Shown here: piece after piece, positions 32,360 through 54,407 of the stretch
Layout of the letters: each line of letters opens with the position of its first letter
Numbering within the stretch: position 1 is the stretch's first letter
DNA from: Actinomycetales bacterium
GTDB taxonomy: Bacteria; Actinomycetota; Actinomycetes; Actinomycetales; Dermatophilaceae
DNA length: 64,000 nucleotides
Reading direction: 5' to 3'
NCBI GenBank assembly: GCA_016710385.1
Contig: JADJVX010000011.1
Coordinates: 136,054 to 200,053, forward strand
Program-made: the position numbers and the translations under genes
The notes under the pieces: generated by a model
The model's input: the letters and a program-made list of their open reading frames with translations, nothing else
The model's database searches: none
What the model was told of the DNA's origin: nothing

Positions 32360-32439
32360 TCGAGTCAGCGACCGGCAGCTGCCGGACACTTCAGCGGCCG
32401 TCGTCCCCAACCGGGACGGCGGCCGCTTGGTATGCCGTG

Positions 32440-34315: not shown

Positions 34316-34353
34316 GGGGGTGGGGGCGGGCTCGGCGGTCGGCGGGTTGACGG

Positions 34354-34839
34354 CTAGAGGATCGCGGTGAGGATGGCCCGGCCGTTCTTCGCGGCCCGGC
34401 GATAGAATTTGCGCAGTTCGCGATAGCGCGGCCGGAGGAACTCCTCGAAGACTGCGTGGTCGAGCCAGAACCCGGGATAGATGTCGGCGGCGAGCATGGA
34501 GTCCGGGTCGTAGCGAGCGGCCAGGTCGTCGGCGCTCAGGTTGCGCAATGCGTCGGCGATCCGCTTGACCGTGCGTCCGTCCAGCAGATGGGCCGGGCCG
34601 TTGCCCAGATTGTGCCCGATCGGTTCACCACCGAAGATCGCTTGCCCCGCAGGGCTTTCGGCGTCGTATGCCGTGCCGGTCAGCAGCCAGTGGATGCCAT
34701 GCCAGGCCGTGTCGAGATCCACGGCCAGCTTGGGACTGGGAGGTTCGTCCTCCAGGAGGTCGACCACCACCTTGGAGTTCGCGCTCACCGCGGCCAGTTC
34801 CTCGGGCTCGAGGGCACGGGCCGTCCAGGTCATCACCAT
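34354..34839 (-). CDS. DUF1877 (YfbM-like) family protein
   Basis: ATG 34839 (MVMTWTARALEPEEL..). WHGIHWLLTG motif. The rest of track ORF 34354..36027 is antisense to ku. Confidence 0.6.
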   Translation of the reverse strand: MVMTWTARALEPEELAAVSANSKVVVDLLEDEPPSPKLAVDLDTAWHGIHWLLTGTAYDAESPAGQAIFGGEPIGHNLGNGPAHLLDGRTVKRIADALRNLSADDLAARYDPDSMLAADIYPGFWLDHAVFEEFLRPRYRELRKFYRRAAKNGRAILTAIL

Positions 34840-34950
34840 GGCAGTGAGTATGCCGTGCGCGCCCCGGATATTCCTGGGCGTGTTGTGTCGCGCTGTGCCG
34901 TGGGTCATGCTGGACGGGTTTGGTGACCAGTGCGACGGATGGGGCCGAGG

Positions 34951-35889
34951 ATGCGAGCCATGTGGAAGGGTGCGGTGTCCTTCGGGCTGGTCAACGTGCC
35001 GGTCAAGCTGTATTCCGCGACCGAGAACCACGACATCTCCTTCCGGCAGGTGCATCGGGTCGATGCCGGGCAGATCCGCTACAAGCGCACCTGCAGTGTG
35101 TGCGGTGAGGTAGTGCCATACGAGGATGTCGCCAAGGGGTATGAAACGGAGGACGGCCGGATGGTCGTGCTCACCGATGAGGACCTGGCCAGCCTGCCCA
35201 ATCAGTCGAGCAAGGAAGTGTCGGTCACCAAGTTCGTGCCGGCCGACCAGGTCGATCCGATGCTCTTCGACAAGGCCTACTACCTCGAGCCGGAGAAGGC
35301 CGCAGTCAAGGCCTATGCGTTGCTGCGCGACGCCCTGCAGAGCGCCGAGCGGGTCGCGTTGGTCACCGTGTCGATCCGCACCCGCATGACGATGGCATTG
35401 CTGCGCGTGCACGACGGGGTCATCGTGCTGCAGACCTTGATGTGGCCGGACGAGATCCGCAGCGCCTCCCTGGTCGACGTCGGCGGCGACGTCCACGCGA
35501 CCGAGCGTGAGTTGGCCATGGCCAACATGCTCGTCGATTCGCTCTCCGGGGACTACGACCCGAGCGAGCTCGAGGACGACTACGCCGCTGCGGTGCAGGC
35601 GCTCGTCGCGTCCAAGCTCGAGGGGGGTGACGTGGCTGCGGCCCCGGCCGAGGTCGAGGGCGGCGGCGAGGTCGTCGACCTGCTGGAGGCGCTGGCCCGT
35701 TCGGTCGACCGGGCCAAGGCGGCTCGCGGCGAGCCGGTAGCCCCCGCCTCTGATGGCGGCGCCACGACGACCGGTGCCGCTGCCAAGGCGACAACCAAGG
35801 CGACAACCAAGCCGACAACCAAGGCGACGACCAAGGCGACGACCAAGTCCGCCGCCAAGCCGGCCGAACCGAAACGTCAGGCCGGCTGA
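34951..35889 (+). CDS. ku: NHEJ protein Ku
   Basis: ATG 34951 follows GAGG. MRAMWKGAVSFGLVNVPVKLYSAT is the canonical Ku start. Lys-rich tail (KATT/KPTT x5, encoded by a 12-bp repeat at 35785-35844). Confidence 0.9.
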   Translation: MRAMWKGAVSFGLVNVPVKLYSATENHDISFRQVHRVDAGQIRYKRTCSVCGEVVPYEDVAKGYETEDGRMVVLTDEDLASLPNQSSKEVSVTKFVPADQVDPMLFDKAYYLEPEKAAVKAYALLRDALQSAERVALVTVSIRTRMTMALLRVHDGVIVLQTLMWPDEIRSASLVDVGGDVHATERELAMANMLVDSLSGDYDPSELEDDYAAAVQALVASKLEGGDVAAAPAEVEGGGEVVDLLEALARSVDRAKAARGEPVAPASDGGATTTGAAAKATTKATTKPTTKATTKATTKSAAKPAEPKRQAG

Positions 35890-35893
35890 GCCG

Positions 35894-36799
35894 ATGCCCG
35901 AGGGCCACACCCTGCACCGGCTGGCAGGGTCGCTCAACGGTGCGTTCGCCGGCACCCGACCCGCGGTGAGCAGTCCGCAGGGTCGTTTCGTCGAGGGGGC
36001 CGCCTGGCTGGACGGGCACACCTTCATCGAGGCCGCGGCATGGGGGAAGCATCTCTTCGCGGAGTTTTCCGGGGACCGTTACCTACACGTCCACCTCGGG
36101 CTCATCGGGTCCTTCGACGTCACGGCATACGCGCCCGAGGCGGCGCTCGACGGCAGCGACGACACGGCATACCCGATCCCACCCGCGGTCGGTGCGGTGC
36201 GTCTGCGGCTGCTCACCGCGCGTCATGTCGCCGACTTGCGCGGCGCCACGCTGTGTCGCACTGCGACCCCCGAGGAGGTCGACGCGGTCATCGCGCGGCT
36301 CGGGCCTGACCCGCTGCGACCGGACGCCGATCCGGAACGCGCGTGGCGCCGGATCAGCACGAGCAACCGCACCATCGCCGACCTGCTCATGGACCAGTCG
36401 ATCCTCGCGGGGGTCGGCAACGTCTATCGCGCGGAGGTGCTCTTTCGGCACCGGATCGACCCCTTCCGGCCGGGGCGAGAGCTGCGCCGGCGCAGCTTCG
36501 AGAGCATCTGGGCCGACCTGGTCCAGCTGCTGCCCATCGGGGTGGCCTTGGGCCAAATCATCACGATGGCCGATCAGGTCGCTGACGCGCTCGCCGGCGA
36601 CTACGACCCCGCCCTGGTGCCGACCTCACCGACGGGGGTGTCGGCCTGGCGGCCCAACCCGCACGGCACGCTGGAACGGCGTTACTACGTCTACAAGCGC
36701 GACGGTATGCCGTGTCGCCAGTGCGGCTCTCGGGTGCGGACTGCTGTGGTGGCCGGCCGCAACCTCTTCTGGTGCGGACGGTGCCAGCGCCGTCGTTGA
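35894..36799 (+). CDS. nei: Fpg/Nei-family DNA glycosylase (endonuclease VIII-like)
   Basis: MPEGHTLHR N-terminal catalytic Pro. H2TH GVGNVYRAEVLF. C-terminal zinc finger CRQCG..FWCGRCQ. Confidence 0.85.
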   Translation: MPEGHTLHRLAGSLNGAFAGTRPAVSSPQGRFVEGAAWLDGHTFIEAAAWGKHLFAEFSGDRYLHVHLGLIGSFDVTAYAPEAALDGSDDTAYPIPPAVGAVRLRLLTARHVADLRGATLCRTATPEEVDAVIARLGPDPLRPDADPERAWRRISTSNRTIADLLMDQSILAGVGNVYRAEVLFRHRIDPFRPGRELRRRSFESIWADLVQLLPIGVALGQIITMADQVADALAGDYDPALVPTSPTGVSAWRPNPHGTLERRYYVYKRDGMPCRQCGSRVRTAVVAGRNLFWCGRCQRRR

Positions 36800-37032
36800 C
36801 GCGAAGGTTATGCAGATCAGATGTCATGAATCTGGGTCTACTCCGTCATACACCTGTCAGCATGCCCATCCCCCTGGCAGGAGCTCCGATGCGCGCCGAC
36901 CGCTCACCACGATCTAAGGGTGACCGGACAGCCGACCATGCCAGGACAAAACGCCTGTACTATGACAACGAGGCTGGGGGGCCAGCCGGGCACCACATTT
37001 CCCTCCATGTGCTGCGCAACAAAGGACATCTC

Positions 37033-40000
37033 ATGACGTTGACCCCGCATTTCGCCATGGCTGCCGGGGCGCGTGCGTCCAGCGCCGAGTCGCGTCCATC
37101 CCCACAGCGACGGCTGACCTCCCTGGTCATCGCATGCGTGCTGGCGTTCATGTCCATCGGTCTGCCGGTGGTACTACCGCCATCGACAGGCTTGCTGCCC
37201 GAGGCCGCGGCGGCGCTCACGACCGCGAACTGCAACATGGGCAGCATGGGTATCAACGGGGCCACCCCGTCGACGGTGTGCTGGCTGCAGACCGGAGGAT
37301 GGACCAAGCCGGCCAAGGGCGCCACGGCGACGACGACGAACCTCACGGCGACGGTCGGGGACTTCAAGTTCACCTACGACGTTGCCGTCTTCTACCACGC
37401 CAATTCATCGACACAGGCAGGGTCGGCAGCGGGCCCGACCTGGGCGTCGGCGGCCTTCGGCAGTGCCAGCTACGGCCCAAGTGCCACCACTCCTACGAGC
37501 TACATCTACGTGACCAACACCGCCCTCGGCATCGTCGAAGCGATGACGATGCGCGTCTCCAACGTCCGGGTCATCAACACGGCGACGAACGCTGTCGTGC
37601 CCTACGGCACCTGGAAGCTGGTCTTCGCGGACGCCGAATCCACCAACAGCAACAGCGCAACCACCCCGAACGAAAGCATCAAGTTCACTGCGAGCAATGC
37701 GATCTCCAACTTCGCGGCAGGCCTGACCACGGACTACATGAAGGGCGGCGGCACGACGGGCACGACTCTCGCCTGCCCCATGCCCACCTGGGGTGGAACG
37801 ACCGTGACCTGCACCGCCACGAGCAACAACAACGGCGTCATCATCGGTTCGACCACCCCGACCAGCGCCGCCGACTGGGGCCAAATCGGTGTCAACACCC
37901 TGAACTCCAAGCAGGCCGCTGCCTTCGGTTTCTCCATCTCCAGCGTTCAGCTGAAGAAGTCTGTCGCCTCTCGGGTGCTGCCGACGGACGACTTCAAGGT
38001 CACGATTGCCGACTCCGCCGGCACGACGGTCGGCAGCGCGAGCACCGGCACGACGACCTCGGCCGATACCACCGCCTATGCCGTGGTCCCTGGCACCTAC
38101 ACCCTGAGTGAGACGGCCAACTCGGGCTCGCTCTCTGAATACACCCAGGCCTGGAGCTGCGTGGACAACGCAGGCTTCGCGGCCCCGGCGGCGCCCTCGG
38201 GCACGTCAGGCACCGTGACGGTGCAACAGGGTTCGGCCATCGTCTGCACCGTGACCAACACCCGCAAGCCAGTCGACCTGCGTTTGACGAAGTCATCGCC
38301 AGCACCGGCGCTGTCGCCGGGGGTGGCGTCCGCCTACACGCTGAATGTCACGAACAACGGCGGTTCGACCGCGACGAACGCGGTCATCGTCGACCAACTG
38401 CCGGCCAATATCGCCTACACCTCCTCGTCGGGCACGGACTGGAGCTGTTCGGCCAGTGGCACGGTCGCAGCTGGGCAGCTCGTCACGTGCACCTACACCG
38501 GGTTGATCGCGCCCTCCGCGGCGGCTCCCGCGCTCACCATCACTGTCACTCCTGCGGACGCTGCCGGAGGCACGACCGTGACCAACAAGGCGGCGGTCAC
38601 CCCGACTGGGGGAACGACTGCCCCGACGGCGGCCGTCGTGCAGGCCTGCACCGGCTCGGCCACTCCCACGACGGGGTGTGCCACGTCGACGTCGACTGTC
38701 GCCACCAAGGCTGACATCGCCGTCACCAAGTCCGACTCCACGGGTTCCGTGGACGCCGGTGGGACGACTACGTATACCGTCACCGTCACCAACAACGGCC
38801 CCAACGCGGTGAGCAATGTGGTTGTCACCGACCCCGCAGTGAGTGGGCTGACCAAGACCACCATCGCCTGCGGGGCGGGATGCACGACGGCTCCGACGAA
38901 GACCCAACTCGAGGGAGCGGGCTACACGATTTCCTCGTTGGCCTCCGGTGCGAGCTTCACATTCACCGTGGGCGTAACGGTGACCGCGACGTCGGGAACC
39001 GTCGCCAACGCGGCGACGGCGACCCCGCCGGCCGGGACGATCGACGCAGCCGGCAACAACGCGGCCACCGACACCAACACGGTGACACCTGTCTCCGACT
39101 TGGCGGTCACCAAGACCGACAACGCGACCACGGTCGACGCGGGCGCCACGACCACCTACACCGTCCAGGTGACCAACAACGGCCCCTCGGCGGTCACCGG
39201 CGCGATCCTCACCGACCCGGCCGCGACGGGTCTGACCAAGACCGCGGTTGCGTGCGGGACGGGCTGCGCCACTGCTCCCTCGATCGCTGACCTCGAGACG
39301 GGTTACGCCCTGCCGACACTCGCCTCGGGTGCTTCGTATGCCGTGCAGGTGACGGTGCACGTTGACGCCACGAGCGGCTCGGTCACGAACGTCGCCACTG
39401 TGGCCCCGCCCGCCGGGACTCTGGACAAGGTTGTCACGAACGATTCCGCGGCCGACACGGACACGGTCGCCCCGGTTGCCGACGTGTCGGTGACCAAGGA
39501 CGACGGCGTGACCCAGGTCAACAAGAACGAATCACACACCTACACGATCACGGTCCACAACGCGGGCCCGTCGACGGCCACCGGCTTCGTGCTCACCGAC
39601 CCGGCGGCAACCGGTCTGACCAAGACGGCTGTGGCCTGCGTGACGGGGTGCGCGACGGCTCCGACGATCGCGCAGCTCGAAGGTGCAGGTTACGTGATAC
39701 CGGATCTAGCATCCGGCAGCGACTTCGTCATCACAGTCACCGCGACGGTCACCCAGTCGCAGGGTTCGGTGACAAACACCGCCGTCGCCACGGCTCCGGC
39801 CGGGGTCAAGGACCCTGACACCGCCAACAACACCGGCAGTGACACCGACAATCTGGTTCCGCTGGCCGACCTGACGGTGACCAAGACCGACGGCGTCGCA
39901 GGGGCCAAGCCGGGCGACACCGTGACGTACACGGTCACGGTCAGCAATCCGTCGGGTCTGTCGACCGCCGCCAACGTCGTCATCACGGACCCGGCCGTGG

Positions 40001-43000
40001 CCGGCTTGACCGTGACGGCCGTGGCGTGCACGTCCCTCGCGGGCAATCTCTGCACGACCAACCCGACCATCAGCGCTTTGCAGGGCGCCGGTGTTGCGAT
40101 CGGCACCATGAGCTCGGGGTCCACCTACGAGTTCACCGTGACCGCAACCGTGGACGCGACGTCGGGGACGGTAACGAACACCGCGACGGCGACCACGTCG
40201 ACCCAGGACCCCAACCTGGCCAACAACAGTGCCAGTGACACCGACACGGTGGTCGGCCCGCCGGTCATCAGTGGTCCGGCAGAGGGATCGTTGATCAACG
40301 ACAACACCCCGCTGATCACGGGGACGGGCATCCCGGGTGCCACCGTGACCGTCACCGAGGGTGGGGTCACCCTGTGCACTGCCGTGGCCGCGCCCGATGG
40401 CACGTGGTCGTGCACGTCATCGCAGCTGACCGACGGCCCGCACACCATCTCCGCGACGCAGACGACTGCGGGCGTGACCTCCACCGCCGACACTCAGACT
40501 TTCACGGTGGACACGACCGCTCCGGTGGTGACGGCGACGTCGCCGGCGGTGACGAATGACACGACGCCGACGATTTCGGGGACGACGGATTTGCCGGCGG
40601 GTTCGACGATCACGGTGACTGAGGGTGGTGTGGCGGTGTGTACGGCCACGGTTGCTGCTGATGGGTCGTGGACGTGTGACCCGGTGACGGCGTTGCCGGA
40701 GGGGTCGCACACGTTTACTGCGTCGGGGACGGATGCGGCGGGGAATACGACGACCGCGACGACGACGACGGTGATTGATGTGACGGCTCCGGTGGTGACG
40801 GCGACGTCGCCGGCGGTGACGAATGACACGACGCCGACGATTTCGGGGACGACGGATTTGCCGGCGGGTTCGACGATCACGGTGACTGAGGGTGGTGTGG
40901 CGGTGTGTACGGCCACGGTTGCTGCTGATGGGTCGTGGACGTGTGACCCGGTGACGGCGTTGCCGGAGGGGTCGCACACGTTTACTGCGTCGGGGACGGA
41001 TGCGGCGGGGAATACGACGACCGCGACGACGACGACGGTGATTGATGTGACGGCTCCGGTGGTGACGGCGACGTCGCCGGCGGTGACGAATGACACGACG
41101 CCGACGATTTCGGGGACGACGGATTTGCCGGCGGGTTCGACGATCACGGTGACTGAGGGTGGTGTGGCGGTGTGTACGGCCACGGTTGCTGCTGATGGGT
41201 CGTGGACGTGTGACCCGGTGACGGCGTTGCCGGAGGGGTCGCACACGTTTACTGCGTCGGGGACGGATGCGGCGGGGAATACGACGACCGCGACGACGAC
41301 GACGGTGATTGATGTGACGGCTCCGGTGGTGACGGCGACGTCGCCGGCGGTGACGAATGACACGACGCCGACGATTTCGGGGACGACGGATTTGCCGGCG
41401 GGTTCGACGATCACGGTGACTGAGGGTGGTGTGGCGGTGTGTACGGCCACGGTTGCTGCTGATGGGTCGTGGACGTGTGACCCGGTGACGGCGTTGCCGG
41501 AGGGGTCGCACACGTTTACTGCGTCGGGGACGGATGCGGCGGGGAATACGACGACCGCGACGACGACGACGGTGATTGATGTGACGGCTCCGGTGGTGAC
41601 GGCGACGTCGCCGGCGGTGACGAATGACACGACGCCGACGATTTCGGGGACGACGGATTTGCCGGCGGGTTCGACGATCACGGTGACTGAGGGTGGTGTG
41701 GCGGTGTGTACGGCCACGGTTGCTGCTGATGGGTCGTGGACGTGTGACCCGGTGACGGCGTTGCCGGAGGGGTCGCACACGTTTACTGCGTCGGGGACGG
41801 ATGCGGCGGGGAATACGACGACCGCGACGACGACGACGGTGATTGATGTGACGGCTCCGGTGGTGACGGCGACGTCGCCGGCGGTGACGAATGACACGAC
41901 GCCGACGATTTCGGGGACGACGGATTTGCCGGCGGGTTCGACGATCACGGTGACTGAGGGTGGTGTGGCGGTGTGTACGGCCACGGTTGCTGCTGATGGG
42001 TCGTGGACGTGTGACCCGGTGACGGCGTTGCCGGAGGGGTCGCACACGTTTACTGCGTCGGGGACGGATGCGGCGGGGAATACGACGACCGCGACGACGA
42101 CGACGGTGATTGATGTGACGGCTCCGGTGGTGACGGCGACGTCGCCGGCGGTGACGAATGACACGACGCCGACGATTTCGGGGACGACGGATTTGCCGGC
42201 GGGTTCGACGATCACGGTGACTGAGGGTGGTGTGGCGGTGTGTACGGCCACGGTTGCTGCTGATGGGTCGTGGACGTGTGACCCGGTGACGGCGTTGCCG
42301 GAGGGGTCGCACACGTTTACTGCGTCGGGGACGGATGCGGCGGGGAATACGACGACCGCGACGACGACGACGGTGATTGATGTGACGGCTCCGGTGGTGA
42401 CGGCGACGTCGCCGGCGGTGACGAATGACACGACGCCGACGATTTCGGGGACGACGGATTTGCCGGCGGGTTCGACGATCACGGTGACTGAGGGTGGTGT
42501 GGCGGTGTGTACGGCCACGGTTGCTGCTGATGGGTCGTGGACGTGTGACCCGGTGACGGCGTTGCCGGAGGGGTCGCACACGTTTACTGCGTCGGGGACG
42601 GATGCGGCGGGGAATACGACGACCGCGACGACGACGACGGTGATTGATGTGACGGCTCCGGTGGTGACGGCGACGTCGCCGGCGGTGACGAATGACACGA
42701 CGCCGACGATTTCGGGGACGACGGATTTGCCGGCGGGTTCGACGATCACGGTGACTGAGGGTGGTGTGGCGGTGTGTACGGCCACGGTTGCTGCTGATGG
42801 GTCGTGGACGTGTGACCCGGTGACGGCGTTGCCGGAGGGGTCGCACACGTTTACTGCGTCGGGGACGGATGCGGCGGGGAATACGACGACCGCGACGACG
42901 ACGACGGTGATTGATGTGACGGCTCCGGTGGTGACGGCGACGTCGCCGGCGGTGACGAATGACACGACGCCGACGATTTCGGGGACGACGGATTTGCCGG

Positions 43001-45177
43001 CGGGTTCGACGATCACGGTGACTGAGGGTGGTGTGGCGGTGTGTACGGCCACGGTTGCTGCTGATGGGTCGTGGACGTGTGACCCGGTGACGGCGTTGCC
43101 GGAGGGGTCGCACACGTTTACTGCGTCGGGGACGGATGCGGCGGGGAATACGACGACCGCGACGACGACGACGGTGATTGATGTGACGGCTCCGGTGGTG
43201 ACGGCGACGTCGCCGGCGGTGACGAATGACACGACGCCGACGATTTCGGGGACGACGGATTTGCCGGCGGGTTCGACGATCACGGTGACTGAGGGTGGTG
43301 TGGCGGTGTGTACGGCCACGGTTGCTGCTGATGGGTCGTGGACGTGTGACCCGGTGACGGCGTTGCCGGAGGGGTCGCACACGTTTACTGCGTCGGGGAC
43401 GGATGCGGCGGGGAATACGACGACCGCGACGACGACGACGGTGATTGATGTGACGGCTCCGGTGGTGACGGCGACGTCGCCGGCGGTGACGAATGACACG
43501 ACGCCGACGATTTCGGGGACGACGGATTTGCCGGCGGGTTCGACGATCACGGTGACTGAGGGTGGTGTGGCGGTGTGTACGGCCACGGTTGCTGCTGATG
43601 GGTCGTGGACGTGTGACCCGGTGACGGCGTTGCCGGAGGGGTCGCACACGTTTACTGCGTCGGGGACGGATGCGGCGGGGAATACGACGACCGCGACGAC
43701 GACGACGGTGATTGATGTGACGGCTCCGGTGGTGACGGCGACGTCGCCGGCGGTGACGAATGACACGACGCCGACGATTTCGGGGACGACGGATTTGCCG
43801 GCGGGTTCGACGATCACGGTGACTGAGGGTGGTGTGGCGGTGTGTACGGCCACGGTTGCTGCTGATGGGTCGTGGACGTGTGACCCGGTGACGGCGTTGC
43901 CGGAGGGGTCGCACACGTTTACTGCGTCGGGGACGGATGCGGCGGGGAATACGACGACCGCGACGACGACGACGGTGATTGATGTGACGGCTCCGGTGGT
44001 GACGGCGACGTCGCCGGCGGTGACGAATGACACGACGCCGACGATTTCGGGGACGACGGATTTGCCGGCGGGTTCGACGATCACGGTGACTGAGGGTGGT
44101 GTGGCGGTGTGTACGGCCACGGTTGCTGCTGATGGGTCGTGGACGTGTGACCCGGTGACGGCGTTGCCGGAGGGGTCGCACACGTTTACTGCGTCGGGGA
44201 CGGATGCGGCGGGGAATACGACGACCGCGACGACGACGACGGTGATTGATGTGACGGCTCCGGTGGTGACGGCGACGTCGCCGGCGGTGACGAATGACAC
44301 GACGCCGACGATTTCGGGGACGACGGATTTGCCGGCGGGTTCGACGATCACGGTGACTGAGGGTGGTGTGGCGGTGTGTACGGCCACGGTTGCTGCTGAT
44401 GGGTCGTGGACGTGTGACCCGGTGACGGCGTTGCCGGAGGGGTCGCACACGTTTACTGCGTCGGGGACGGATGCGGCGGGGAATACGACGACCGCGACGA
44501 CGACGACGGTGATTGATGTGACGGCTCCGGTGGTGACGGCGACGTCGCCGGCGGTGACGAATGACACGACGCCGACGATTTCGGGGACGACGGATTTGCC
44601 GGCGGGTTCGACGATCACGGTGACTGAGGGTGGTGTGGCGGTGTGTACGGCCACGGTTGCTGCTGATGGGTCGTGGACGTGTGACCCGGTGACGGCGTTG
44701 CCGGAGGGGTCGCACACGTTTACTGCGTCGGGGACGGATGCGGCGGGGAATACGACGACCGCGACGACGACGACGGTGATTGATGTGACGGCTCCGGTGG
44801 TGTCGTTGGTGATTGATCCGGTGACGGCTGACAACGTGGTGAACGCGGTGGAGGCTGGTGGGCCGGTGTCGGTTACGGGCACGGTCAGTGGTGAGTTCGT
44901 TGCTGGTGACACGGTGACGTTGACGGTGAACGGGACCACGTATACGGGCGTGGTTGATGCGGCTGGGAAGTTCTCGATTCCGGTGCCGGGTGCGGAGTTG
45001 GTGGCTGACCCGGATGTGACGGTGGATGGTTCGGTGTCCACGGTTGATGCGGCGGGTAACCCTGGGTCGGCGTCGGATTCTCAGCTGTATGCGGTGGATG
45101 TGACGGCTCCGGTGGTGCGTGGGGGGGGGGGGGCGGGGGGGGGGGGCGATGGAGCCCGTGGTGTCGTTGGTGATTGA
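37033..45177 (+). CDS. Giant LPXTG surface protein, N-terminal fragment (signal peptide, unknown tip domain, Cna-B/SpaA-like domain, 5 DUF11 repeats, Ig-like repeats)
   Basis: ATG 37033 lies 7 nt after AAAGGA (track ORF 36712.. reads through from nei). TM/signal LTSLVIACVLAFMSIGLPVV. DUF11-type units (DLxVTKTD..TYTVxVTNNGPS..). Then come one Ig-like unit and 16 identical 89-aa units. The last roughly 60 nt (45118-45177) are read-through of a poly-G tract. Confidence 0.8.
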   Translation: MTLTPHFAMAAGARASSAESRPSPQRRLTSLVIACVLAFMSIGLPVVLPPSTGLLPEAAAALTTANCNMGSMGINGATPSTVCWLQTGGWTKPAKGATATTTNLTATVGDFKFTYDVAVFYHANSSTQAGSAAGPTWASAAFGSASYGPSATTPTSYIYVTNTALGIVEAMTMRVSNVRVINTATNAVVPYGTWKLVFADAESTNSNSATTPNESIKFTASNAISNFAAGLTTDYMKGGGTTGTTLACPMPTWGGTTVTCTATSNNNGVIIGSTTPTSAADWGQIGVNTLNSKQAAAFGFSISSVQLKKSVASRVLPTDDFKVTIADSAGTTVGSASTGTTTSADTTAYAVVPGTYTLSETANSGSLSEYTQAWSCVDNAGFAAPAAPSGTSGTVTVQQGSAIVCTVTNTRKPVDLRLTKSSPAPALSPGVASAYTLNVTNNGGSTATNAVIVDQLPANIAYTSSSGTDWSCSASGTVAAGQLVTCTYTGLIAPSAAAPALTITVTPADAAGGTTVTNKAAVTPTGGTTAPTAAVVQACTGSATPTTGCATSTSTVATKADIAVTKSDSTGSVDAGGTTTYTVTVTNNGPNAVSNVVVTDPAVSGLTKTTIACGAGCTTAPTKTQLEGAGYTISSLASGASFTFTVGVTVTATSGTVANAATATPPAGTIDAAGNNAATDTNTVTPVSDLAVTKTDNATTVDAGATTTYTVQVTNNGPSAVTGAILTDPAATGLTKTAVACGTGCATAPSIADLETGYALPTLASGASYAVQVTVHVDATSGSVTNVATVAPPAGTLDKVVTNDSAADTDTVAPVADVSVTKDDGVTQVNKNESHTYTITVHNAGPSTATGFVLTDPAATGLTKTAVACVTGCATAPTIAQLEGAGYVIPDLASGSDFVITVTATVTQSQGSVTNTAVATAPAGVKDPDTANNTGSDTDNLVPLADLTVTKTDGVAGAKPGDTVTYTVTVSNPSGLSTAANVVITDPAVAGLTVTAVACTSLAGNLCTTNPTISALQGAGVAIGTMSSGSTYEFTVTATVDATSGTVTNTATATTSTQDPNLANNSASDTDTVVGPPVISGPAEGSLINDNTPLITGTGIPGATVTVTEGGVTLCTAVAAPDGTWSCTSSQLTDGPHTISATQTTAGVTSTADTQTFTVDTTAPVVTATSPAVTNDTTPTISGTTDLPAGSTITVTEGGVAVCTATVAADGSWTCDPVTALPEGSHTFTASGTDAAGNTTTATTTTVIDVTAPVVTATSPAVTNDTTPTISGTTDLPAGSTITVTEGGVAVCTATVAADGSWTCDPVTALPEGSHTFTASGTDAAGNTTTATTTTVIDVTAPVVTATSPAVTNDTTPTISGTTDLPAGSTITVTEGGVAVCTATVAADGSWTCDPVTALPEGSHTFTASGTDAAGNTTTATTTTVIDVTAPVVTATSPAVTNDTTPTISGTTDLPAGSTITVTEGGVAVCTATVAADGSWTCDPVTALPEGSHTFTASGTDAAGNTTTATTTTVIDVTAPVVTATSPAVTNDTTPTISGTTDLPAGSTITVTEGGVAVCTATVAADGSWTCDPVTALPEGSHTFTASGTDAAGNTTTATTTTVIDVTAPVVTATSPAVTNDTTPTISGTTDLPAGSTITVTEGGVAVCTATVAADGSWTCDPVTALPEGSHTFTASGTDAAGNTTTATTTTVIDVTAPVVTATSPAVTNDTTPTISGTTDLPAGSTITVTEGGVAVCTATVAADGSWTCDPVTALPEGSHTFTASGTDAAGNTTTATTTTVIDVTAPVVTATSPAVTNDTTPTISGTTDLPAGSTITVTEGGVAVCTATVAADGSWTCDPVTALPEGSHTFTASGTDAAGNTTTATTTTVIDVTAPVVTATSPAVTNDTTPTISGTTDLPAGSTITVTEGGVAVCTATVAADGSWTCDPVTALPEGSHTFTASGTDAAGNTTTATTTTVIDVTAPVVTATSPAVTNDTTPTISGTTDLPAGSTITVTEGGVAVCTATVAADGSWTCDPVTALPEGSHTFTASGTDAAGNTTTATTTTVIDVTAPVVTATSPAVTNDTTPTISGTTDLPAGSTITVTEGGVAVCTATVAADGSWTCDPVTALPEGSHTFTASGTDAAGNTTTATTTTVIDVTAPVVTATSPAVTNDTTPTISGTTDLPAGSTITVTEGGVAVCTATVAADGSWTCDPVTALPEGSHTFTASGTDAAGNTTTATTTTVIDVTAPVVTATSPAVTNDTTPTISGTTDLPAGSTITVTEGGVAVCTATVAADGSWTCDPVTALPEGSHTFTASGTDAAGNTTTATTTTVIDVTAPVVTATSPAVTNDTTPTISGTTDLPAGSTITVTEGGVAVCTATVAADGSWTCDPVTALPEGSHTFTASGTDAAGNTTTATTTTVIDVTAPVVTATSPAVTNDTTPTISGTTDLPAGSTITVTEGGVAVCTATVAADGSWTCDPVTALPEGSHTFTASGTDAAGNTTTATTTTVIDVTAPVVTATSPAVTNDTTPTISGTTDLPAGSTITVTEGGVAVCTATVAADGSWTCDPVTALPEGSHTFTASGTDAAGNTTTATTTTVIDVTAPVVSLVIDPVTADNVVNAVEAGGPVSVTGTVSGEFVAGDTVTLTVNGTTYTGVVDAAGKFSIPVPGAELVADPDVTVDGSVSTVDAAGNPGSASDSQLYAVDVTAPVVRGGGGAGGGGDGARGVVGD
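40519..44790 (+). repeat. Tandem array: 16 x 267 bp (89 aa Ig-like unit), apparently 100% identical
   Basis: The period was measured between GCTCCGGTGGTG anchors (40519, 40786 ... 44791). (44791-40519)/267 = 16.0. Copy-to-copy translations are identical in three different frames of the supplied track. Confidence 0.9.
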
Positions 45178-47322
45178 TCCGGTGACGGCTGACAACGTGG
45201 TGAACGCGGTGAGGCTGGTGGGCCGGTGTCGGTTACGGGCACGGTCAGTGGTGAGTTTCGTTGCTGGTGACACGGTGACGTTGACGGTGAACGGGACCAC
45301 GTATACGGGCGTGGTTGATGCGGCTGGGAAGTTCTCGATTCCGGTGCGGGTGCGGGTTGGTGGCTGAGATGTGCGGTGGCGGGGAACCCTGGGTCGGCGT
45401 CGGATTCTCAGCTGTATGCGGTGGATGTGACGGCTCCGGTGGTGTCGTTGGTGATTGATCCGGTGACGGCTGACAACGTGGTGAACGCGGTGGAGGCTGG
45501 TGGGCCGGTGTCGGTTACGGGCACGGTCAGTGGTGAGTTCGTTGCTGGTGACACGGTGACGTTGACGGTGAACGGGAACACGTATACGGGCGTGGTTGAT
45601 GCGGCTGGGAAGTTCTCGATTCCGGTGCCGGGTGCGGAGTTGGTGGCTGACCCGGATGTGACGGTGGATGGTTCGGTGTCCACGGTTGATGCGGCGGGTA
45701 ACCCTGGGTCGGCGTCGGATTCTCAGCTGTATGCGGTGGATGTGACGGCTCCGGTGGTGTCGTTGGTGATTGATCCGGTGACGGCTGACAACGTGGTGAA
45801 CGCGGTGGAGGCTGGTGGGCCGGTGTCGGTTACGGGCACGGTCAGTGGTGAGTTTGTTGCTGGTGACACGGTGACGTTGACGGTGAACGGGAACACGTAT
45901 ACGGGCGTGGTTGATGCGGCTGGGAAGTTCTCGATTCCGGTGCCGGGTGCGGAGTTGGTGGCTGACCCGGATGTGACGGTGGATGGTTCGGTGTCCACGG
46001 TTGATGCGGCGGGTAACCCTGGGTCGGCGTCGGATTCTCAGCTGTATGCGGTGGATGTGACGGCTCCGGTGGTGTCGTTGGTGATTGATCCGGTGACGGC
46101 TGACAACGTGGTGAACGCGGTGGAGGCTGGTGGGCCGGTGTCGGTTACGGGCACGGTCAGTGGTGAGTTCGTTGCTGGTGACACGGTGACGTTGACGGTG
46201 AACGGGACCACGTATACGGGCGTGGTTGATGCGGCTGGGAAGTTCTCGATTCCGGTGCCGGGTGCGGAGTTGGTGGCTGACCCGGATGTGACGGTGGATG
46301 GTTCGGTGTCCACGGTTGATGCGGCGGGTAACCCTGGGTCGGCGTCGGATTCTCAGCCGTACACGGTGGATGTGACGGCTCCGGTGGTGTCGTTGGTGAT
46401 TGATCCGGTGACGGCTGACAACGTGGTGAACGCGGTGGAGGCTGGTGGGCCGGTGTTGGTTACGGGCACGGTCAGTGGTGAGTTTGTTGCTGGTGACACG
46501 GTGACGTTGACGGTGAACGGGACCACGTATACGGGCGTGGTTGATGCGGCTGGGAAGTTCTCGATTCCGGTGCCGGGTGCGGAGTTGGTGGCTGACCCGG
46601 ATGTGACGGTGGATGGTTCGGTGTCCACGGTTGATGCGGCGGGTAACCCTGGGTCGGCGTCGGATTCTCAGCCGTATGCGGTGGATGTGACGGCTCCGGT
46701 GGTGTCGTTGGTGATTGATCCGGTGACGGCTGACAACGTGGTGAACGCGGTGGAGGCTGGTGGGCCGGTGTCGGTTACGGGCACGGTCAGTGGTGAGTTC
46801 GTTGCTGGTGACACGGTGACGTTGACGGTGAACGGGACCACGTATACGGGCGTGGTTGATGCGGCTGGGAAGTTCTCGATTCCGGTGCCGGGTGCGGAGT
46901 TGGTGGCTGACCCGGATGTGACGGTGGATGGTTCGGTGTCCACGGTTGATGCGGCGGGTAACCCTGGGTCGGCGTCGGATTCTCAGCCGTACACGGTGGA
47001 TGTGACGGCTCCGGTGGTGTCGTTGGTGATTGATCCGGTGACGGCTGACAACGTGGTGAACGCGGTGGAGGCTGGTGGGCCGGTGTCGGTTACGGGCACG
47101 GTCAGTGGTGAGTTCGTTGCTGGTGACACGGTGACGTTGACGGTGAACGGGACCACGTATACGGGCGTGGTTGATGCGGCTGGGAAGTTCTCGATTCCGG
47201 TGCCGGGTGCGGAGTTGGTGGCTGACCCGGATGTGACGGTGGATGGTTCGGTGTCCACGGTTGATGCGGCGGGTAACCCTGGGTCGGCGTCGGATTCTCA
47301 GCCGTACACGGTGGACGCGGGC
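44791..47322 (+). repeat. Tandem array: 8 x 315 bp (105 aa Ig-like unit), near-identical, second copy degraded
   Basis: Unit starts are 44791, 45106 (degraded, 327 bp), 45433, 45748, 46063, 46378, 46693 and 47008. A few substitutions separate copies (N/T, L/P, A/T, S/L, and synonymous TTC/TTT). Confidence 0.85.
45121..45146. other. G13-C-G12 low-complexity tract at a degraded repeat junction (probable assembly/basecalling artefact)
   Basis: Read directly: 13 G, one C, 12 G. It is followed by a repeat copy carrying several 1-nt indels and a truncated 3-prime end (to about 45432). Confidence 0.7.
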
Positions 47323-48048
47323 GTCACGCCCCCGGTGATCACGGGGCCAGTGGACGGGTCGTCGACGACGAACACCACGCCGCCGATCAGCGGCACCGGT
47401 GAGCCCGGCGCCACGGTCACGGTCACCGAGAATGGGCAGCCGATCTGCACCGCCATGGTCGCGCAGGACGGCACCTGGTCCTGCACCCCGACGGCCCCCT
47501 TGGCCGGTGGGACGCACACCTTCCAGGCGACGCAGACCGATCTAGCGGGCAACGTCTCCGCGAGGTCGAATGTTGTCTCGGTGTCGATCATCACCGCCGT
47601 CATCGAAGGTCACGTGTTCCTTGACGGCAACGCGAACACCACCCTGGACGGGGGTGAGGCGGACATCGCGAAGGTCACCGTCGAGTTGGTTAAAGACGGC
47701 GTCGTCGTCGCCACCCAGGTGACGGCCAGCCCGTACCGGTTCACCGGGGTCGCTGACGGCACCTACACGATCCGCGTCGTGAACGGCCCGGCCCTGGCTG
47801 GCCTGACCGCGACGACCGAGCCTGACGCCCTCAAGACGGTGACCATGGTCAACCAGGTGTCGATCTACGAGCAGAACTTCGGCTATGTCCCCGCGGCACT
47901 GCCGAAAACGGGGTCTGACGTGGCCCCGGTGCTGTTCAGTGGGCTCGGCCTGGTGACCCTTGGGTTCGTGGCCCTGCTGGCGGTCCGCCGCCGTCACGAG
48001 GATGACGAAGAGGTCGTGGCCCGTGTCGGCGCTGACGAGATGAACTGA
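45376..48048 (+). CDS. Giant LPXTG surface protein, C-terminal fragment (Ig-like repeats, SdrD-B/Cna-B-like domain, sortase signal)
   Basis: The open frame resumes inside the degraded copy. It ends with LPKTGSDVAPVLFSGLGLVTLGFVALLAVRRRHEDD (LPXTG, TM helix, basic tail). It is very probably one gene with 37033..45177. Confidence 0.8.
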   Translation: MAGNPGSASDSQLYAVDVTAPVVSLVIDPVTADNVVNAVEAGGPVSVTGTVSGEFVAGDTVTLTVNGNTYTGVVDAAGKFSIPVPGAELVADPDVTVDGSVSTVDAAGNPGSASDSQLYAVDVTAPVVSLVIDPVTADNVVNAVEAGGPVSVTGTVSGEFVAGDTVTLTVNGNTYTGVVDAAGKFSIPVPGAELVADPDVTVDGSVSTVDAAGNPGSASDSQLYAVDVTAPVVSLVIDPVTADNVVNAVEAGGPVSVTGTVSGEFVAGDTVTLTVNGTTYTGVVDAAGKFSIPVPGAELVADPDVTVDGSVSTVDAAGNPGSASDSQPYTVDVTAPVVSLVIDPVTADNVVNAVEAGGPVLVTGTVSGEFVAGDTVTLTVNGTTYTGVVDAAGKFSIPVPGAELVADPDVTVDGSVSTVDAAGNPGSASDSQPYAVDVTAPVVSLVIDPVTADNVVNAVEAGGPVSVTGTVSGEFVAGDTVTLTVNGTTYTGVVDAAGKFSIPVPGAELVADPDVTVDGSVSTVDAAGNPGSASDSQPYTVDVTAPVVSLVIDPVTADNVVNAVEAGGPVSVTGTVSGEFVAGDTVTLTVNGTTYTGVVDAAGKFSIPVPGAELVADPDVTVDGSVSTVDAAGNPGSASDSQPYTVDAGVTPPVITGPVDGSSTTNTTPPISGTGEPGATVTVTENGQPICTAMVAQDGTWSCTPTAPLAGGTHTFQATQTDLAGNVSARSNVVSVSIITAVIEGHVFLDGNANTTLDGGEADIAKVTVELVKDGVVVATQVTASPYRFTGVADGTYTIRVVNGPALAGLTATTEPDALKTVTMVNQVSIYEQNFGYVPAALPKTGSDVAPVLFSGLGLVTLGFVALLAVRRRHEDDEEVVARVGADEMN

Positions 48049-48063
48049 CGGCGCAAGGCACGT

Positions 48064-48103
48064 CGAGGGCGTGGAACCACCCGGTTCCGCGCCCTCGGCG
48101 TTT
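48064..48103 (+). terminator. Rho-independent-type terminator after the surface protein gene
   Basis: CGAGGGCGTGGAACC (48064-48078), loop ACCC, then GGTTCCGCGCCCTCG (48083-48097). There is one mismatch, and GCGTTTCC follows. Confidence 0.6.
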
Positions 48104-48128
48104 CCGTGCCCGGCAGACAAGATCCGAT

Positions 48129-48160
48129 ACAGGTATGCCGTGCGGGCACGGCATACCTGT
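48129..48160. repeat. Perfect palindrome built from an inverted pair of the abundant motif, in the clpC1 upstream region
   Basis: ACAGGTATGCCGTGC GG GCACGGCATACCTGT, with 15-bp perfect arms. Confidence 0.8.
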
Positions 48161-48306
48161 GTGCTCAGGGCGAACACGCGGGGAGGGTGCTGCCTGGGGG
48201 AACACCCACTGCGGGGGTCGCGTTGGGCATAAGACTGGTATGCCGCGCGGCCCGGATACGATCGTGGCGCTGATGCAGGCGAGGCCTGGAAGGTAGGAGT
48301 GGAGAA

Positions 48307-50880
48307 ATGTTCGAACGGTTTACCGACCGCGCTCGGCGCGTCGTCGTGCTCGCCCAAGAAGAGGCGCGCATGCTCAACCACAACTACATCGGCACCGAGC
48401 ACATCTTGCTTGGCCTCATCCACGAGGGCGAGGGCCTGGCCGCCAAGGCGTTGGAAAACCTCGGGATCAAGCTGGCCGACGTTCGCCAGCAGGTGCAGGA
48501 GATCATCGGCCAAGGCCAGCAGGCGCCCACGGGGCACATTCCCTTCACGCCGCGAGCCAAGAAGGTGCTCGAGTATTCGCTGCGGGAGGGCCTACAGCTC
48601 GGGCACACCTACATCGGCACCGAGCACATCTTGCTCGGTCTGATCCGCGAGGGTGAGGGGGTCGCAGCCCAGGTGCTCGTCAAGCTCGGGGCCGACCTCA
48701 ACAAGGTGCGTCAGCAGGTCATCCAGCTGTTGGCGGGCTACCAGTCCGGGCAGGGGGAGAAGGCCGGTGCCGGCGTGGGAGCCGCCCAGGGCGGGCCCTC
48801 CGAGGGCACGCCGGCGGGTTCGCTGGTGCTGGACCAGTTCGGTCGCAACCTGACCCAGGCTGCTCGCGAGGGGAAGCTCGACCCGGTCATCGGGCGCGAG
48901 AAGGAGATCGAGCGGGTCATGCAGGTGCTGTCTCGCCGCACCAAGAACAACCCGGTCCTCATCGGTGAGCCCGGCGTGGGGAAGACCGCGGTCGTCGAGG
49001 GCCTCGCCCAGGACATCGTCCGCGGCACAGTGCCCGAGACGCTCAAGGACAAGCAGCTCTACACCCTCGATCTGGGCGCACTGGTCGCCGGGTCGCGCTA
49101 TCGCGGTGATTTCGAAGAGCGACTCAAGAAGGTGCTCAAGGAGATCCGCACCCGCGGCGACATCATCATCTTCATCGACGAGATCCATACCCTGGTCGGA
49201 GCCGGTGCCGCCGAGGGCGCCATCGACGCGGCATCGATCCTCAAGCCGATGCTGGCGCGCGGCGAGTTGCAGACCATCGGGGCCACGACCCTCGACGAAT
49301 ACCGCAAGCACATCGAGAAGGACTCGGCGCTGGAGCGGCGCTTCCAGCCCATCCAGGTCGCCGAGCCGACCCTCGCGCACACCATCGAGATCCTCAAGGG
49401 CCTGCGCGACCGTTACGAAGCCCACCACCGGGTGTCCATCACCGACGGCGCCCTGGTTGCCGCCGCGACAATGGCCGACCGCTATGTCAACGACCGTTTT
49501 CTGCCCGACAAGGCGATCGACCTCATCGACGAGGCGGGCGCGCGACTGCGGATCCGCCGAATGACGGCTCCGCCGGACCTGCGCGAATACGACGAGAAGA
49601 TCGCCGAAGTGCGTCGCCAAAAGGAAGCGGCCATCGACGGCCAGGATTTCGAGAAGGCCGCGCGCCTGCGCGACGACGAGAAGCAACTGTCCAACGCCCG
49701 CGCCGAGCGCGAGGCGCAGTGGAAAGCCGGCGACATGGATGTCGTCGCGGAGGTCGACGAGGAGCTCATCGCGGAGGTGCTGGCCGCGTCGACCGGCATA
49801 CCGGTCTTCAAGCTCACCGAGGAGGAGTCCGCCCGCCTGCTCAACATGGAGGCCGAGCTGCACAAGCGGATCGTCGGGATGAACGACGCCATCCACGCGC
49901 TGTCTCAGGCCATCCGGCGCACCCGCGCCGGGCTGAAGGACCCCCGTCGCCCGGGCGGGTCGTTCATTTTCGCTGGGCCGACCGGTGTCGGCAAGACCGA
50001 GCTGGCCAAGACTCTCGCGGAATTCCTCTTCGGCGATGAGGATGCGCTCATCCAGCTCGACATGAGCGAATACTCCGAAAAGCACACGGTTTCAAGGCTT
50101 TTCGGTTCACCCCCCGGTTACGTGGGCTACGAAGAGGGCGGCCAGCTCACCGAAAAGGTGCGCCGCCGGCCGTTCTCGGTGGTGCTCTTCGATGAGGTCG
50201 AAAAGGCTCACCCGGACATCTTCAACTCGTTGCTGCAGGTGTTGGAGGACGGTCGACTCACCGACTCGCAGGGCCGGATGGTCGACTTCAAGAACACCGT
50301 CATCATCATGACGACCAACCTCGGCACCCGTGACATCACCAAGGGCAGCCTAGGCTTCTCGGCCGGACCGGACACCCGTAGCGAATACGAGCGGATGAAG
50401 AACAAGGTCCAGGACGAGCTGAAGAACCACTTCCGTCCGGAGTTCCTCAACCGCGTGGACGACATCATCGTCTTCCCCCAGCTCACCCAGGAAGAGATCG
50501 TCGCGATCGTCGACCTGGAGATCGCCAAGCTGGACAAGCGGCTCAAGGACAAGGACATGGGTCTCGAACTCACCCTCACGGCCAAGAACCTGCTGGCCAA
50601 GAAGGGCTACGACCCCGTGCTCGGTGCTCGCCCGCTGCGGCGCACCATCCAGCGCGAGATCGAGGACATGCTGTCCGAGAAGATCCTCTACGGCGAGTTG
50701 AAGGCGGGCGAGTTCGTCCTCGTCGACGCGACCGGCGAGGAACGCGACTCGACGTTCACGTTCCAAGGATCGCTGCGGCGCGACACTATTCCCGATATTC
50801 CCGATATTCCGGATATGCCGCCAATCGACTCGGTGGGTGGACCGCGGGATGCCGCCGGTGGAACGGCGAGTGCGTCATAG
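48307..50880 (+). CDS. clpC1: ATP-dependent Clp protease ATP-binding subunit ClpC1
   Basis: [21 protein letters not shown], duplicated Clp-N repeats, two AAA modules (GEPGVGKTA; [12 protein letters not shown]), and a UVR-like motif between them. Confidence 0.97.
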
Positions 50881-50964
50881 CAATGCCCGGTCATCGGAGA
50901 GGGGACGTGCGGTCCGTGCGCGCCAGAAGGGGCAGTCGGGTCGCTCGTCGTATACCATCGGGGC

Positions 50965-51387
50965 ATGCCTGACGTGATGGTCGAGCCCACGATCCGCGAG
51001 GAGGAGGACTGTTTCGTCCTCCCCCTCACCGGTCGTGAGGTCGACCAGATCTGCATCGACTACGCGGTGACGCTGGTCATCGACGGCACTGATACCGTCC
51101 GGCTGGACAGTCCGTTCACCGTGTCCTTCTCCGATCGCACCCTGCTCGTCGACCCGCAGCGTCTCGACACCGTCGCGCCGGTGCTCGACCTGTTCCGCGC
51201 GGTCATCCTGCGGGCGGCGGCCGGCCGAGACGGTTCTTTGCTGCTGTCGTTCGACGACGACCGCTCCCTGCGCATCGAGGCCGACCCCGACGGTGAGGCC
51301 TGGGAGATCGGTGGCGGTCTTCCGCCGATCTCCCCGTCCTATCGCATCGTTTCGCTGCCCGCCGGTTCGGGGATCGAGTTCTCCTGA
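50965..51387 (+). CDS. Hypothetical protein
   Basis: 140-aa ORF with ATG start and normal GC3 bias. No family recognised. Confidence 0.5.
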   Translation: MPDVMVEPTIREEEDCFVLPLTGREVDQICIDYAVTLVIDGTDTVRLDSPFTVSFSDRTLLVDPQRLDTVAPVLDLFRAVILRAAAGRDGSLLLSFDDDRSLRIEADPDGEAWEIGGGLPPISPSYRIVSLPAGSGIEFS

Positions 51388-51409
51388 GGTCCTGGAACCG
51401 TGTGCCGCG

Positions 51410-51943: not shown

Positions 51944-52086
51944 GATGTGAGCCCAGCCAGGCGCGGCGGGAGCGCCCGTGAACGCAGCCTGGGGTCCTGG
52001 GCACAGCCAGCCGAACGGCATACCGGCTGGTGCGTGCAAAGATGGCCCCCGGCCCCTGCCCATAGCACCGAGGATCGACCCCTTCC

Positions 52087-52623: not shown

Positions 52624-52661
52624 GCCCGCCCTCGCAAGGGTCCGGGCGGCGACTGGGCAGT

Positions 52662-53414: not shown

Positions 53415-53503
53415 ACTTTGTGCTCCTAGGACGAACAGCCACTAGCGCAACGGGCGCGGATACAGCACAGTTGGCCTCGGAATTACCGAACGAAAGGTCA
53501 CCC

Positions 53504-54358: not shown

Positions 54359-54407
54359 GTCCTCCCCCTCGCGACAGCTGCACCGAGTCTCCGGCGCCGG
54401 CCCACCA

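Follow-up and report, generated by a model that had tools for sequence, protein, structure and literature searches.

Is the coding region that separates nei from clpC in a bacterium of the family Dermatophilaceae, broken by stop codons in the deposited sequence, one giant surface-protein gene? We addressed this question for a 64-kb stretch of contig JADJVX010000011.1 (referred to as the window; all coordinates count from its first nucleotide). Its plus-strand region 37033-48048 constitutes a single reading frame of 3,671 codons, starting with the ATG at 37033 and ending with the stop codon at 48046-48048. This frame contains 4 in-frame stops, all within aa 2715-2762 of the translation, where amino acids are numbered from the Met at 37033. 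We consider the region to be one gene for a Sec-exported, sortase-anchored fibrillar adhesin, the stops to be a consensus or polishing error, and the locus to be a lineage-specific insertion of 11.3 kb between nei and clpC; we estimate the probability of this reading at about 0.77. Directly observed were the reading frame, the families to which the domains belong, the organisation of the repeats, the sorting signal, the borders of the insertion and the occurrence of the gene in independent assemblies.

A probable single gene across a damaged repeat unit

A mechanical list of open reading frames (ORFs) divides the region into 36712..45177 and 45376..48048, which share one frame. The disruption lies in the second of eight 315-bp repeat units (45097..45423, plus strand). 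Aligned to an intact unit, this unit shows a 45-bp insertion with the tract G13-C-G12 (45121-45146), at least 4 scattered single-base insertions or deletions (indels) and small deletions of about 32 bp, and its first in-frame stop is located at 45175-45177. The net length change is +12 bp, by which the frame is restored. Apart from the G13 and G12 runs, the window has no homopolymer of 8 or more bases. The other seven 315-bp units contain no indels, and the remaining 10.7 kb of the gene are free of frameshifts and stops. Because mixed lesions are clustered in one unit of an otherwise flawless 11-kb frame, we read the break as a consensus error and not as decay. Most likely, the damaged unit represents an assembly, consensus or polishing artefact and no gene boundary. 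A first-pass annotation of the window had already read one gene across the interruption at 45.1-45.4 kb. This is still the best-supported view, as the damage affects a single repeat unit only, resembles a consensus error and keeps the frame. The poly-G tract was also considered as a phase-variation switch, which was rejected because the damaged unit carries many further indels and deletions. Replacing the damaged unit by an intact copy results in a product of 3,667 aa, with a mature protein of about 345 kDa, a pI of about 4 and 21 % Thr.

The closest genomes found are Danish wastewater metagenome-assembled genomes (MAGs) with contigs named tig000..., including Candidatus (Ca.) Phosphoribacter and Ca. 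Lutibacillus. In the Danish wastewater MAG project, Nanopore reads were assembled by CANU, polished by Racon and twice by Medaka, and finally subjected to an Illumina Racon pass with --include-unpolished (PMC8012365). We infer, short of proof, that the window originates from a Nanopore-based MAG of this kind (CANU/Racon/Medaka with a last Illumina Racon pass). On this assumption, long reads probably already underlie the repeat counts. An exact search of metagenome contigs for the insertion/repeat junction of the damaged unit, aimed at independent recurrences of the lesion, gave no match, which we count as uninformative.

The most serious alternative, although unlikely, is a genuine pseudogene, in which a real lesion truncates the protein at aa 2714, so that no product is made or an unanchored fragment is secreted. 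The stops are present in the deposited sequence, the GenBank protein P0045 ends at the first of them (45175-45177), and accessory adhesin genes often decay. However, the mixed types of lesions, clustered in 327 bp beside 10.7 kb of clean sequence, are what one expects of a poor consensus, their net effect is +12 bp, and the array-flanking sequence in another sample is intact at 99.6-99.8 % identity. P0045, a 267-aa 'Ig-like domain-containing protein' (44377-45177), appears to be the only product of the region in the public annotation of the source contig, and in the collections searched no protein corresponds to the whole gene of 3,670 codons.

The two ORFs of the mechanical list would agree with two functional genes, one for a secreted product of 2,714 aa and one for a wall-anchored product of 890 aa, but this is very improbable: the start of the downstream ORF, a GTG, falls into the damaged repeat unit, repeat sequence can be recognised also between the ORFs, and since the downstream ORF lacks a signal peptide, its LPKTG signal could not be used.

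Independent assemblies support a single locus. The short-read scaffold L001, derived from another sample and 99.6-99.8 % identical, covers 32294-40840 and, after a gap of 100 N, 46946-60880. Its left part extends from nei across the non-repetitive N-terminal region and reaches the first 267-bp unit of the other repeat array, whereas its right part leads from the last 315-bp unit via the C-terminal region into clpC. In three more contigs, again from other samples, the C-terminal part adjoins clpC, and each contig terminates within the last 315-bp unit. All of these other assemblies of the locus are short-read assemblies and are broken or gapped at the arrays. They show that the adhesin gene is stably present in its species, while the break falls within the gap of L001. 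As L001 holds both gene halves in one locus, we exclude a chimera of different loci. Such a mis-assembly of repeat-bearing genes from different loci or organisms is suggested by a sharp discontinuity of codon usage exactly at the array borders and by the general hazard that repeats pose to assembly. Yet it has hardly any probability left, because L001 crosses the outer border of each array without interruption (nei to first 267-bp unit, last 315-bp unit to clpC), with the same C-poor sequence at both edges, and because the junction of the two arrays is in frame and has a common DVTAPVV boundary motif.

The start of the gene was likewise matched independently. Gene call P0002 from another assembly uses the same ATG at 37033 (both proteins begin with MTLTPHF), and a ribosome-binding-like AAAGGA motif is located at 37021-37026, 6 nt 5' of this ATG.

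Domain architecture of the stalk and wall anchor

The first-pass annotation had described nine modules, from a signal peptide over two Ig-like arrays to an LPKTG anchor. Profile searches and repeat comparison bore out all of them in the same order and copy numbers. Reading from the N-terminus, the sequence has the properties of a Sec signal (37033..37215, plus strand like all following features; aa 1-61), namely a basic n-region (RPSPQRR), a hydrophobic core of 18-20 residues (LVIACVLAFMSIGLPVVL) and an AAAA cleavage region. Relatives of the N-terminal head align to the adhesin from the A-x-A region onward. The head (37216..37947; aa 62-305) is treated below. It is followed by a SpaA_3 prealbumin-like (CnaB-type) domain (37948..38274; aa 306-414), which scored 62.6 bits against PF20674 at a cutoff of 24 and was modelled by AlphaFold2 (AF2) with a predicted local confidence (pLDDT) of about 90-97.

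Five DUF11/CLIPPER domains (38275..40257; aa 415-1075) start at aa 415, 561, 689, 817 and 946. This region matched PF01345 in 5 stretches with 223.4 bits, above the gathering score, as well as TIGR01451, and TIGR04226 on the fifth repeat. DUF11 is now named CLIPPER and has a Lys-Asp-Asn isopeptide bond, and SpaA_3 is predicted to form isopeptide bonds too (PMC12617251). All five repeats keep a K at position 6, a D about 34 residues further on and an N about 93 residues further on, close to the triad spacings of 33 and 91 in structure 9IFR (PMC12617251). Compared with the same study, Lys308/309, Glu360 and Asn409 of the SpaA_3 domain occupy the triad positions. With the triad residues kept at matching spacings, isopeptide cross-links in the CLIPPER and SpaA_3 domains are likely.

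The Ig-like part of the stalk starts with a divergent Big_13-type unit (40258..40514; aa 1076-1160; Big_13 was matched in 2 stretches within aa 1-1250). Next comes a perfect tandem array of 16 x 267 bp (40515..44786), encoding 16 identical Big_13 units of 89 aa (aa 1163-2586). Tandem Repeats Finder reported 16.1 copies with 99 % matches, and the DNA identity per copy is 100 % except for one base in copy 1. All 16 are exact copies at the protein level, each scoring 58 bits against PF19077. The second array (44782..47313) consists of 8 x 315 bp, 7 intact and 1 damaged, encoding 105-aa units of the Ig_like_ice/Ca_tandemer type. Its intact units differ from each other by 0-5 substitutions. These units reached 151.1 bits for NF012196 (Ig_like_ice) and 161 bits for NF033510 (Ca_tandemer), both with cutoffs of 50, and were weak in Pfam. 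A terminal Big_13/Big_6 Ig-like unit (47314..47610), scored at aa 227-300 of a piece beginning at 46684, gave 71.7 bits for PF19077 and 58.1 bits for PF17936. Across the adhesin, Big_13 matches ranged from 58 to 81 bits.

The C-terminal part comprises an SdrD_B-like domain (47611..47811; PF17210, 33.9 bits at a cutoff of 29.7) with a D-x-N-x-N...D-G-G-E loop, and the cell-wall sorting signal (47899..48048). The latter consists of LPKTG (47899-47913), a hydrophobic membrane helix of 21 residues, the basic stop-transfer sequence RRRH and an acidic tail of 16 aa before the stop, and matched TIGR01167 (LPXTG_anchor) with 21.1 bits at a cutoff of 15.9. The 16-residue tail (EDDEEVVARVGADEMN) following RRRH at 47995-48045 is unusual among LPXTG signals.

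Fibrillar adhesins have been described as proteins with an adhesive domain distal to the anchor, tandem stalk domains and a surface anchor (Monzon & Bateman, PMC8286594). All three components were found here: the head (aa 62-305) corresponds to the adhesive domain, about 33 domains make up the stalk, and the C-terminal LPKTG corresponds to the anchor.

A putative divergent adhesive head

The head family became accessible only through relatives. A phmmer search of 1.84 billion representative proteins with the head recovered only two fragments, one from the same gene and another of 160 aa, and a word-indexed search added one protein of 31 % identity from a Frondihabitans MAG. A profile of three head sequences then retrieved 24 proteins, mostly actinobacterial. 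In the resulting alignment A2 of 23 proteins, the head of the window protein included, 11 of the 23 matched PF18651 (CshA_NR2). For P0006, P0007, P0008, P0015 and P0022 this match covered positions 2-195 of the 196 positions of PF18651 at 41-64 bits, with SpaA_3 directly after it. A family hidden Markov model (HMM) built with the window protein left out scored 137.6 bits against this protein over head and SpaA_3 jointly (aa 4 to 360). Conserved in the family are two cysteines (here C67 and C83), PT[YW] and an invariant ADAEST[DN]...E, present in the window head as ADAESTN...E beside an AFG..SSVQL motif. The G.PALYQ motif of the family is degenerate in the window protein. Based on this profile homology, we read the head as a putative, very divergent member of the CshA_NR2-like superfamily that falls below the Pfam threshold. 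Thus, the tip region of about 270 aa that the first-pass annotation could not assign to any family indeed escapes direct Pfam assignment, but its relatives provide the family link.

CshA_NR2-like domains are known adhesin tips, 24 % of which occur in Actinobacteria, and were reported to be "invariably" followed by a GEVED domain (PMC10952558). Downstream of the head no GEVED (PF20009) match was obtained; SpaA_3 follows instead, likewise in the relatives. Head and SpaA_3 together form an actinobacterial cassette that also tips other LPXTG proteins. The head family occupies the N-terminus of LPXTG/LAXTG proteins of 424-1,585 aa in 29 metagenome loci, including a human-gut group. Its smallest form, represented by P0015, consists of head, SpaA_3 and anchor, and the window protein is a cassette of the P0015 type with an inserted stalk of about 3,200 aa. 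The human-gut sequences (L087-L106) form a tight metagenome group encoding LPLTG proteins of about 1,200-1,234 aa, with a G+C content of 0.54-0.57 and heads 25-28 % identical to that of the window. In P0017, P0020, P0021 and P0024 the same head follows a prepilin-type methylation motif (GFTLIE...) in proteins without Sec signal and LPXTG. Hence, type IV pilin-like or pseudopilin proteins may display this head as well.

Several points weigh against our interpretation of the locus. The break could be a real lesion, as it was assessed from the consensus sequence, and the perfect identity of the 16 units as well as the copy numbers are derived from one long-read consensus. At aa 55-312 the head gave no direct Pfam match, PF18651 included, even at E <= 10. 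Its AF2 model is all-beta and of modest confidence (pLDDT 62.6, predicted TM score 0.64), and a Foldseek search with the head alone yielded no match at E < 0.05. At the C-terminus, Pfam Gram_pos_anchor (PF00746) remained just below its cutoff, with 19.7 versus 20 bits. Finally, no sortase was found in the 64-kb window: neither a TLxTC motif in a plausible frame nor a sortase Pfam match appeared among the scanned ORFs and the L001 genes, in agreement with the first-pass annotation.

With respect to the fold of the head, sequence and profile searches against the PDB returned noise only. Among the lectin-like sandwiches listed by Foldseek, the N-domain of Sgo0707 (4igb) ranked second and was the best adhesin match (E 0.064, TM 0.33). 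This domain is counted among the structural homologues of CshA_NR2 (Barringer et al., PMC10952558). With the combined head and SpaA_3 model, Foldseek gave generic pilin/adhesin matches at TM scores of about 0.2. That pilins ranked first in this search, that SpaA-type and isopeptide-type domains occur and that the motif is LPxTG and not LAxTG might point to polymerisation by a class C sortase, with the protein serving as pilus subunit or tip pilin and not as a monomeric wall-anchored adhesin, but this is the least probable explanation of all, given these low TM scores, a length of 3,670 aa and a 33-domain stalk typical of fibrillar adhesins, and neither a pilin-specific sortase nor partner pilin genes adjoining the gene.

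The insertion between nei and clpC

The adhesin gene is flanked by nei (35894..36799), coding for an Fpg/Nei-family DNA glycosylase (Pfam H2TH, Fapy_DNA_glyco and zf-FPG; also a gene call of L001), and by clpC (48307..50880), coding for an AAA+ Clp ATPase (Pfam Clp_N, AAA, AAA_2, UVR and ClpB_D2-small) identical to MBK8755935.1; both are on the plus strand. In L007, the nearest species representative (Nei 91 % and ClpC 98 % identical), these two genes are only 223 bp apart. Aligned by blastn, L007 and the window match up to the nei stop codon (36799) and again from 48124 onward. The 11.3 kb in between are made up of a 233-bp leader, the gene and a hairpin after its stop. This alignment, together with the short nei-clpC gap of L007, strongly supports the proposal of an accessory insertion into a core region. 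With Nei as query, a scan of species-representative genomes yielded 71 loci, mostly from Dermatophilaceae, in which the order ku-nei-clpC is conserved, and tblastn of every adhesin module against these 71 loci gave no match. A presence/absence insertion of the 11.3-kb segment is therefore well supported by these comparisons, and loss in the sister lineage seems less likely. At the insertion borders direct repeats reached at best 6 nt, which is chance level, and no integrase or transposase was found flanking them. Thus, there is no evidence for a mobile-element mechanism.

The 5' non-coding leader (36800..37032, plus strand) is part of the inserted segment and absent from L007. It contains no match to the sigma-70 consensus, and scans for consensus promoters and terminators at both ends of the gene gave no match. 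By folding, a hairpin was identified directly 3' of the stop (48064..48097, plus strand), with a G+C-rich stem of 15 bp followed by GCGUUUCC. Its minimum free energy is -50.9 kcal/mol (z = -7.4 versus shuffles). This hairpin is the probable terminator and still part of the insertion, whose last base is 48123. Just outside the insertion and 5' of clpC, at 48128-48160, lies a second perfect hairpin (ACAGGTATGCCGTGC/GCACGGCATACCTGT). At the equivalent place of the adhesin-free L007 (10936-10965) a related hairpin, GGCATACC...GGTATGCC, is found.

In Dermatophilaceae (loci L007-L063) the spacer between nei and clpC varies from 0.2 to 9.7 kb and carries unrelated cargo, none of it an adhesin. This cargo includes a methyltransferase-like gene, Usp, a 750-aa protein ending in WWPMGG and MoxR/vWA clusters in Pedococcus. 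The window as a whole is a conserved actinobacterial block, tmk-holB ... ppa-dacB-tilS-hpt-ftsH-folBK ... nadB ... lysS-lsr2 ... clpC ... disA-radA ... putA-proC, with gene names reflecting our reading of Pfam matches. Between lsr2 and nei (32440-35889) a non-homologous end joining (NHEJ) set is encoded, comprising a LigD primase-polymerase, an ATP-dependent ligase, a DUF1877 gene and ku; the primase-polymerase and the ligase are two adjacent minus-strand ORFs. In mycobacteria the lsr2-clpC interval is tight. The position of the NHEJ set indicates that the lsr2-clpC interval of the window has taken up several insertions.

Codon composition of the repeat arrays

The two arrays differ from their surroundings in codon composition. 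The fraction of C at third codon positions (C3) is 0.46-0.56 in the non-repetitive parts of the adhesin gene, in nei and in clpC, but only 0.07 (267-bp units) and 0.11-0.16 (315-bp units) within the arrays. Third positions of the arrays are richer in G (0.58-0.71) and in T (0.22-0.31). Codon usage changes right at the array borders, at about 40515 and 47313. The flanking Big_13 units, although homologous to the repeated unit, have normal codon usage (C3 0.41-0.46 in the divergent unit at 40258..40514). A Nanopore artefact as the cause of the C-poor bias was rejected because the short-read scaffold L001 has the same sequence. Inheritance of the bias from donors of the 105-aa units was rejected as well, since C3 is 0.42-0.55 in five Gram-negative adhesin relatives.

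A more far-reaching explanation, which we regard as speculative and rather improbable, is that the 6.8 kb from 40515 to 47313 might be a separately acquired or recoded stalk cassette, with 105-aa units stemming from type I secretion system (T1SS) adhesins of Gram-negative members of that sludge community and with an almost complete avoidance of C3 selected at the DNA or mRNA level. If true, C3 avoidance, for example through less intrastrand pairing, would let perfect arrays persist and change in length in a genome of 66 % G+C.

Proposed mechanism

The families involved suggest how the protein may work. Its export, anchoring, isopeptide bonds, Ca2+ dependence, physical length and ligand are inferred from these families, in the same way as the artefactual nature of the break is from the consensus. 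The adhesin would be exported via Sec, whereupon a sortase encoded elsewhere in the genome would cut LPKTG between T and G and link the protein to peptidoglycan. The stalk of about 33 beta-sandwich domains, each 4-5 nm long, could project the head roughly 0.1-0.15 um from the wall; it counts SdrD_B, 18 Big_13, 8 Ig_like_ice and 5 DUF11/CLIPPER domains and SpaA_3. Probably, Ca2+ would stiffen the Ig_like_ice section, and isopeptide bonds the CLIPPER and SpaA_3 sections. The CshA_NR2-like, lectin-type head may then bind some polymer or a ligand on the surface of partner cells in activated-sludge flocs. The DNA-identical arrays might allow the length of the stalk to change by recombination, as in periscope proteins.

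Comparison with known adhesins and biological meaning

Among the closest counterparts are CshA/CshB of Streptococcus gordonii and other CshA_NR2-tipped adhesins (Barringer et al. 2023, PMC10952558). Like the window protein, they combine an N-terminal NR2-type beta-sandwich tip, which is putative in the window protein, with a long repetitive stalk and a C-terminal LPXTG anchor, and in these adhesins, too, the head is highly divergent in sequence and the architecture arises by domain shuffling. In contrast to them, the window head remains under the PF18651 threshold and is linked to the family only via an actinobacterial subfamily, it is followed by SpaA_3 and not by GEVED, the other stalk domains differ, and fibronectin is not expected as a ligand in sludge.

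Periscope proteins such as SasG/Aap, Rib and Sgo_0707 (Whelan et al. 2021, PMC8201768) likewise have a wall-anchored N-terminal binding domain projected by folded tandem repeats that are identical at the DNA level. The corresponding repeats in the adhesin are the 16 x 267 bp at 100 % and the 8 x 315 bp at 98 % identity or more. Periscope proteins are, however, defined by variation of the repeat number from strain to strain, whereas the arrays of the window are known from one assembly. Furthermore, the stalk of the window protein also has a long non-identical section of five DUF11 domains.

The 105-aa unit type is shared with Region II of T1SS RTX adhesins (the ice-binding adhesin of Marinomonas primoryensis and LapA-like 'retention module-containing' proteins). 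The nearest relatives of the unit, 45-67 % identical, are 'Ig-like domain-containing' or 'retention module-containing' proteins from Aeromonas, Buttiauxella, Pseudomonas, Photobacterium, Thiobacillus and Ca. Accumulibacter. All five genomic contexts that were fetched represent giant genes of Gram-negative type; one of them (L108) adjoins T1SS ABC and membrane-fusion protein (MFP) genes, and the others contain Cadherin_4, Big_9 and HemolysinCabind domains. Since these relatives sit in giant adhesins of the Gram-negative T1SS/RTX type, the first-pass annotation was right in labelling the units as Bap/RTX-class. Unlike T1SS RTX adhesins, the window protein has a Sec signal and a sortase signal, and its units are C-poor. 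No HemolysinCabind, retention-module or T1SS-signal match was found in the adhesin, and no ABC/MFP genes were found nearby.

Two further groups share single modules. Tandem CLIPPER stalk domains with the conserved Lys-Asp-Asn triad are common to the adhesin and the DUF11/CLIPPER adhesins (PMC12617251), and an SdrD_B-type domain beside the wall anchor is common to the staphylococcal Sdr proteins. In contrast to the latter, the window protein has one SdrD_B domain, which lacks the first-strand Lys, and neither a Ser-Asp repeat region nor an MSCRAMM A-domain.

Taken together, the adhesin belongs to the known class of domain-shuffled, periscope-like LPXTG fibrillar adhesins, of which it is a tidy example that leaves current concepts unchanged. 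It is a clear case of stalk modules common to Gram-negative T1SS adhesins and a Gram-positive sortase substrate, a sharing across the Gram divide that is already treated as common in the fibrillar-adhesin literature. Only the codon anomaly and the exact insertion point go beyond routine, and the former is the only feature of the adhesin that might lead somewhere new. The uncultured organism represents an activated-sludge lineage of Dermatophilaceae near the phosphate-accumulating Ca. Phosphoribacter and Ca. Lutibacillus. Floc formation and cell-cell contact are process-relevant in activated sludge, and to our knowledge almost nothing is known about the adhesins behind them. The gene described here is a species-specific adhesin gene at a precisely defined insertion point.

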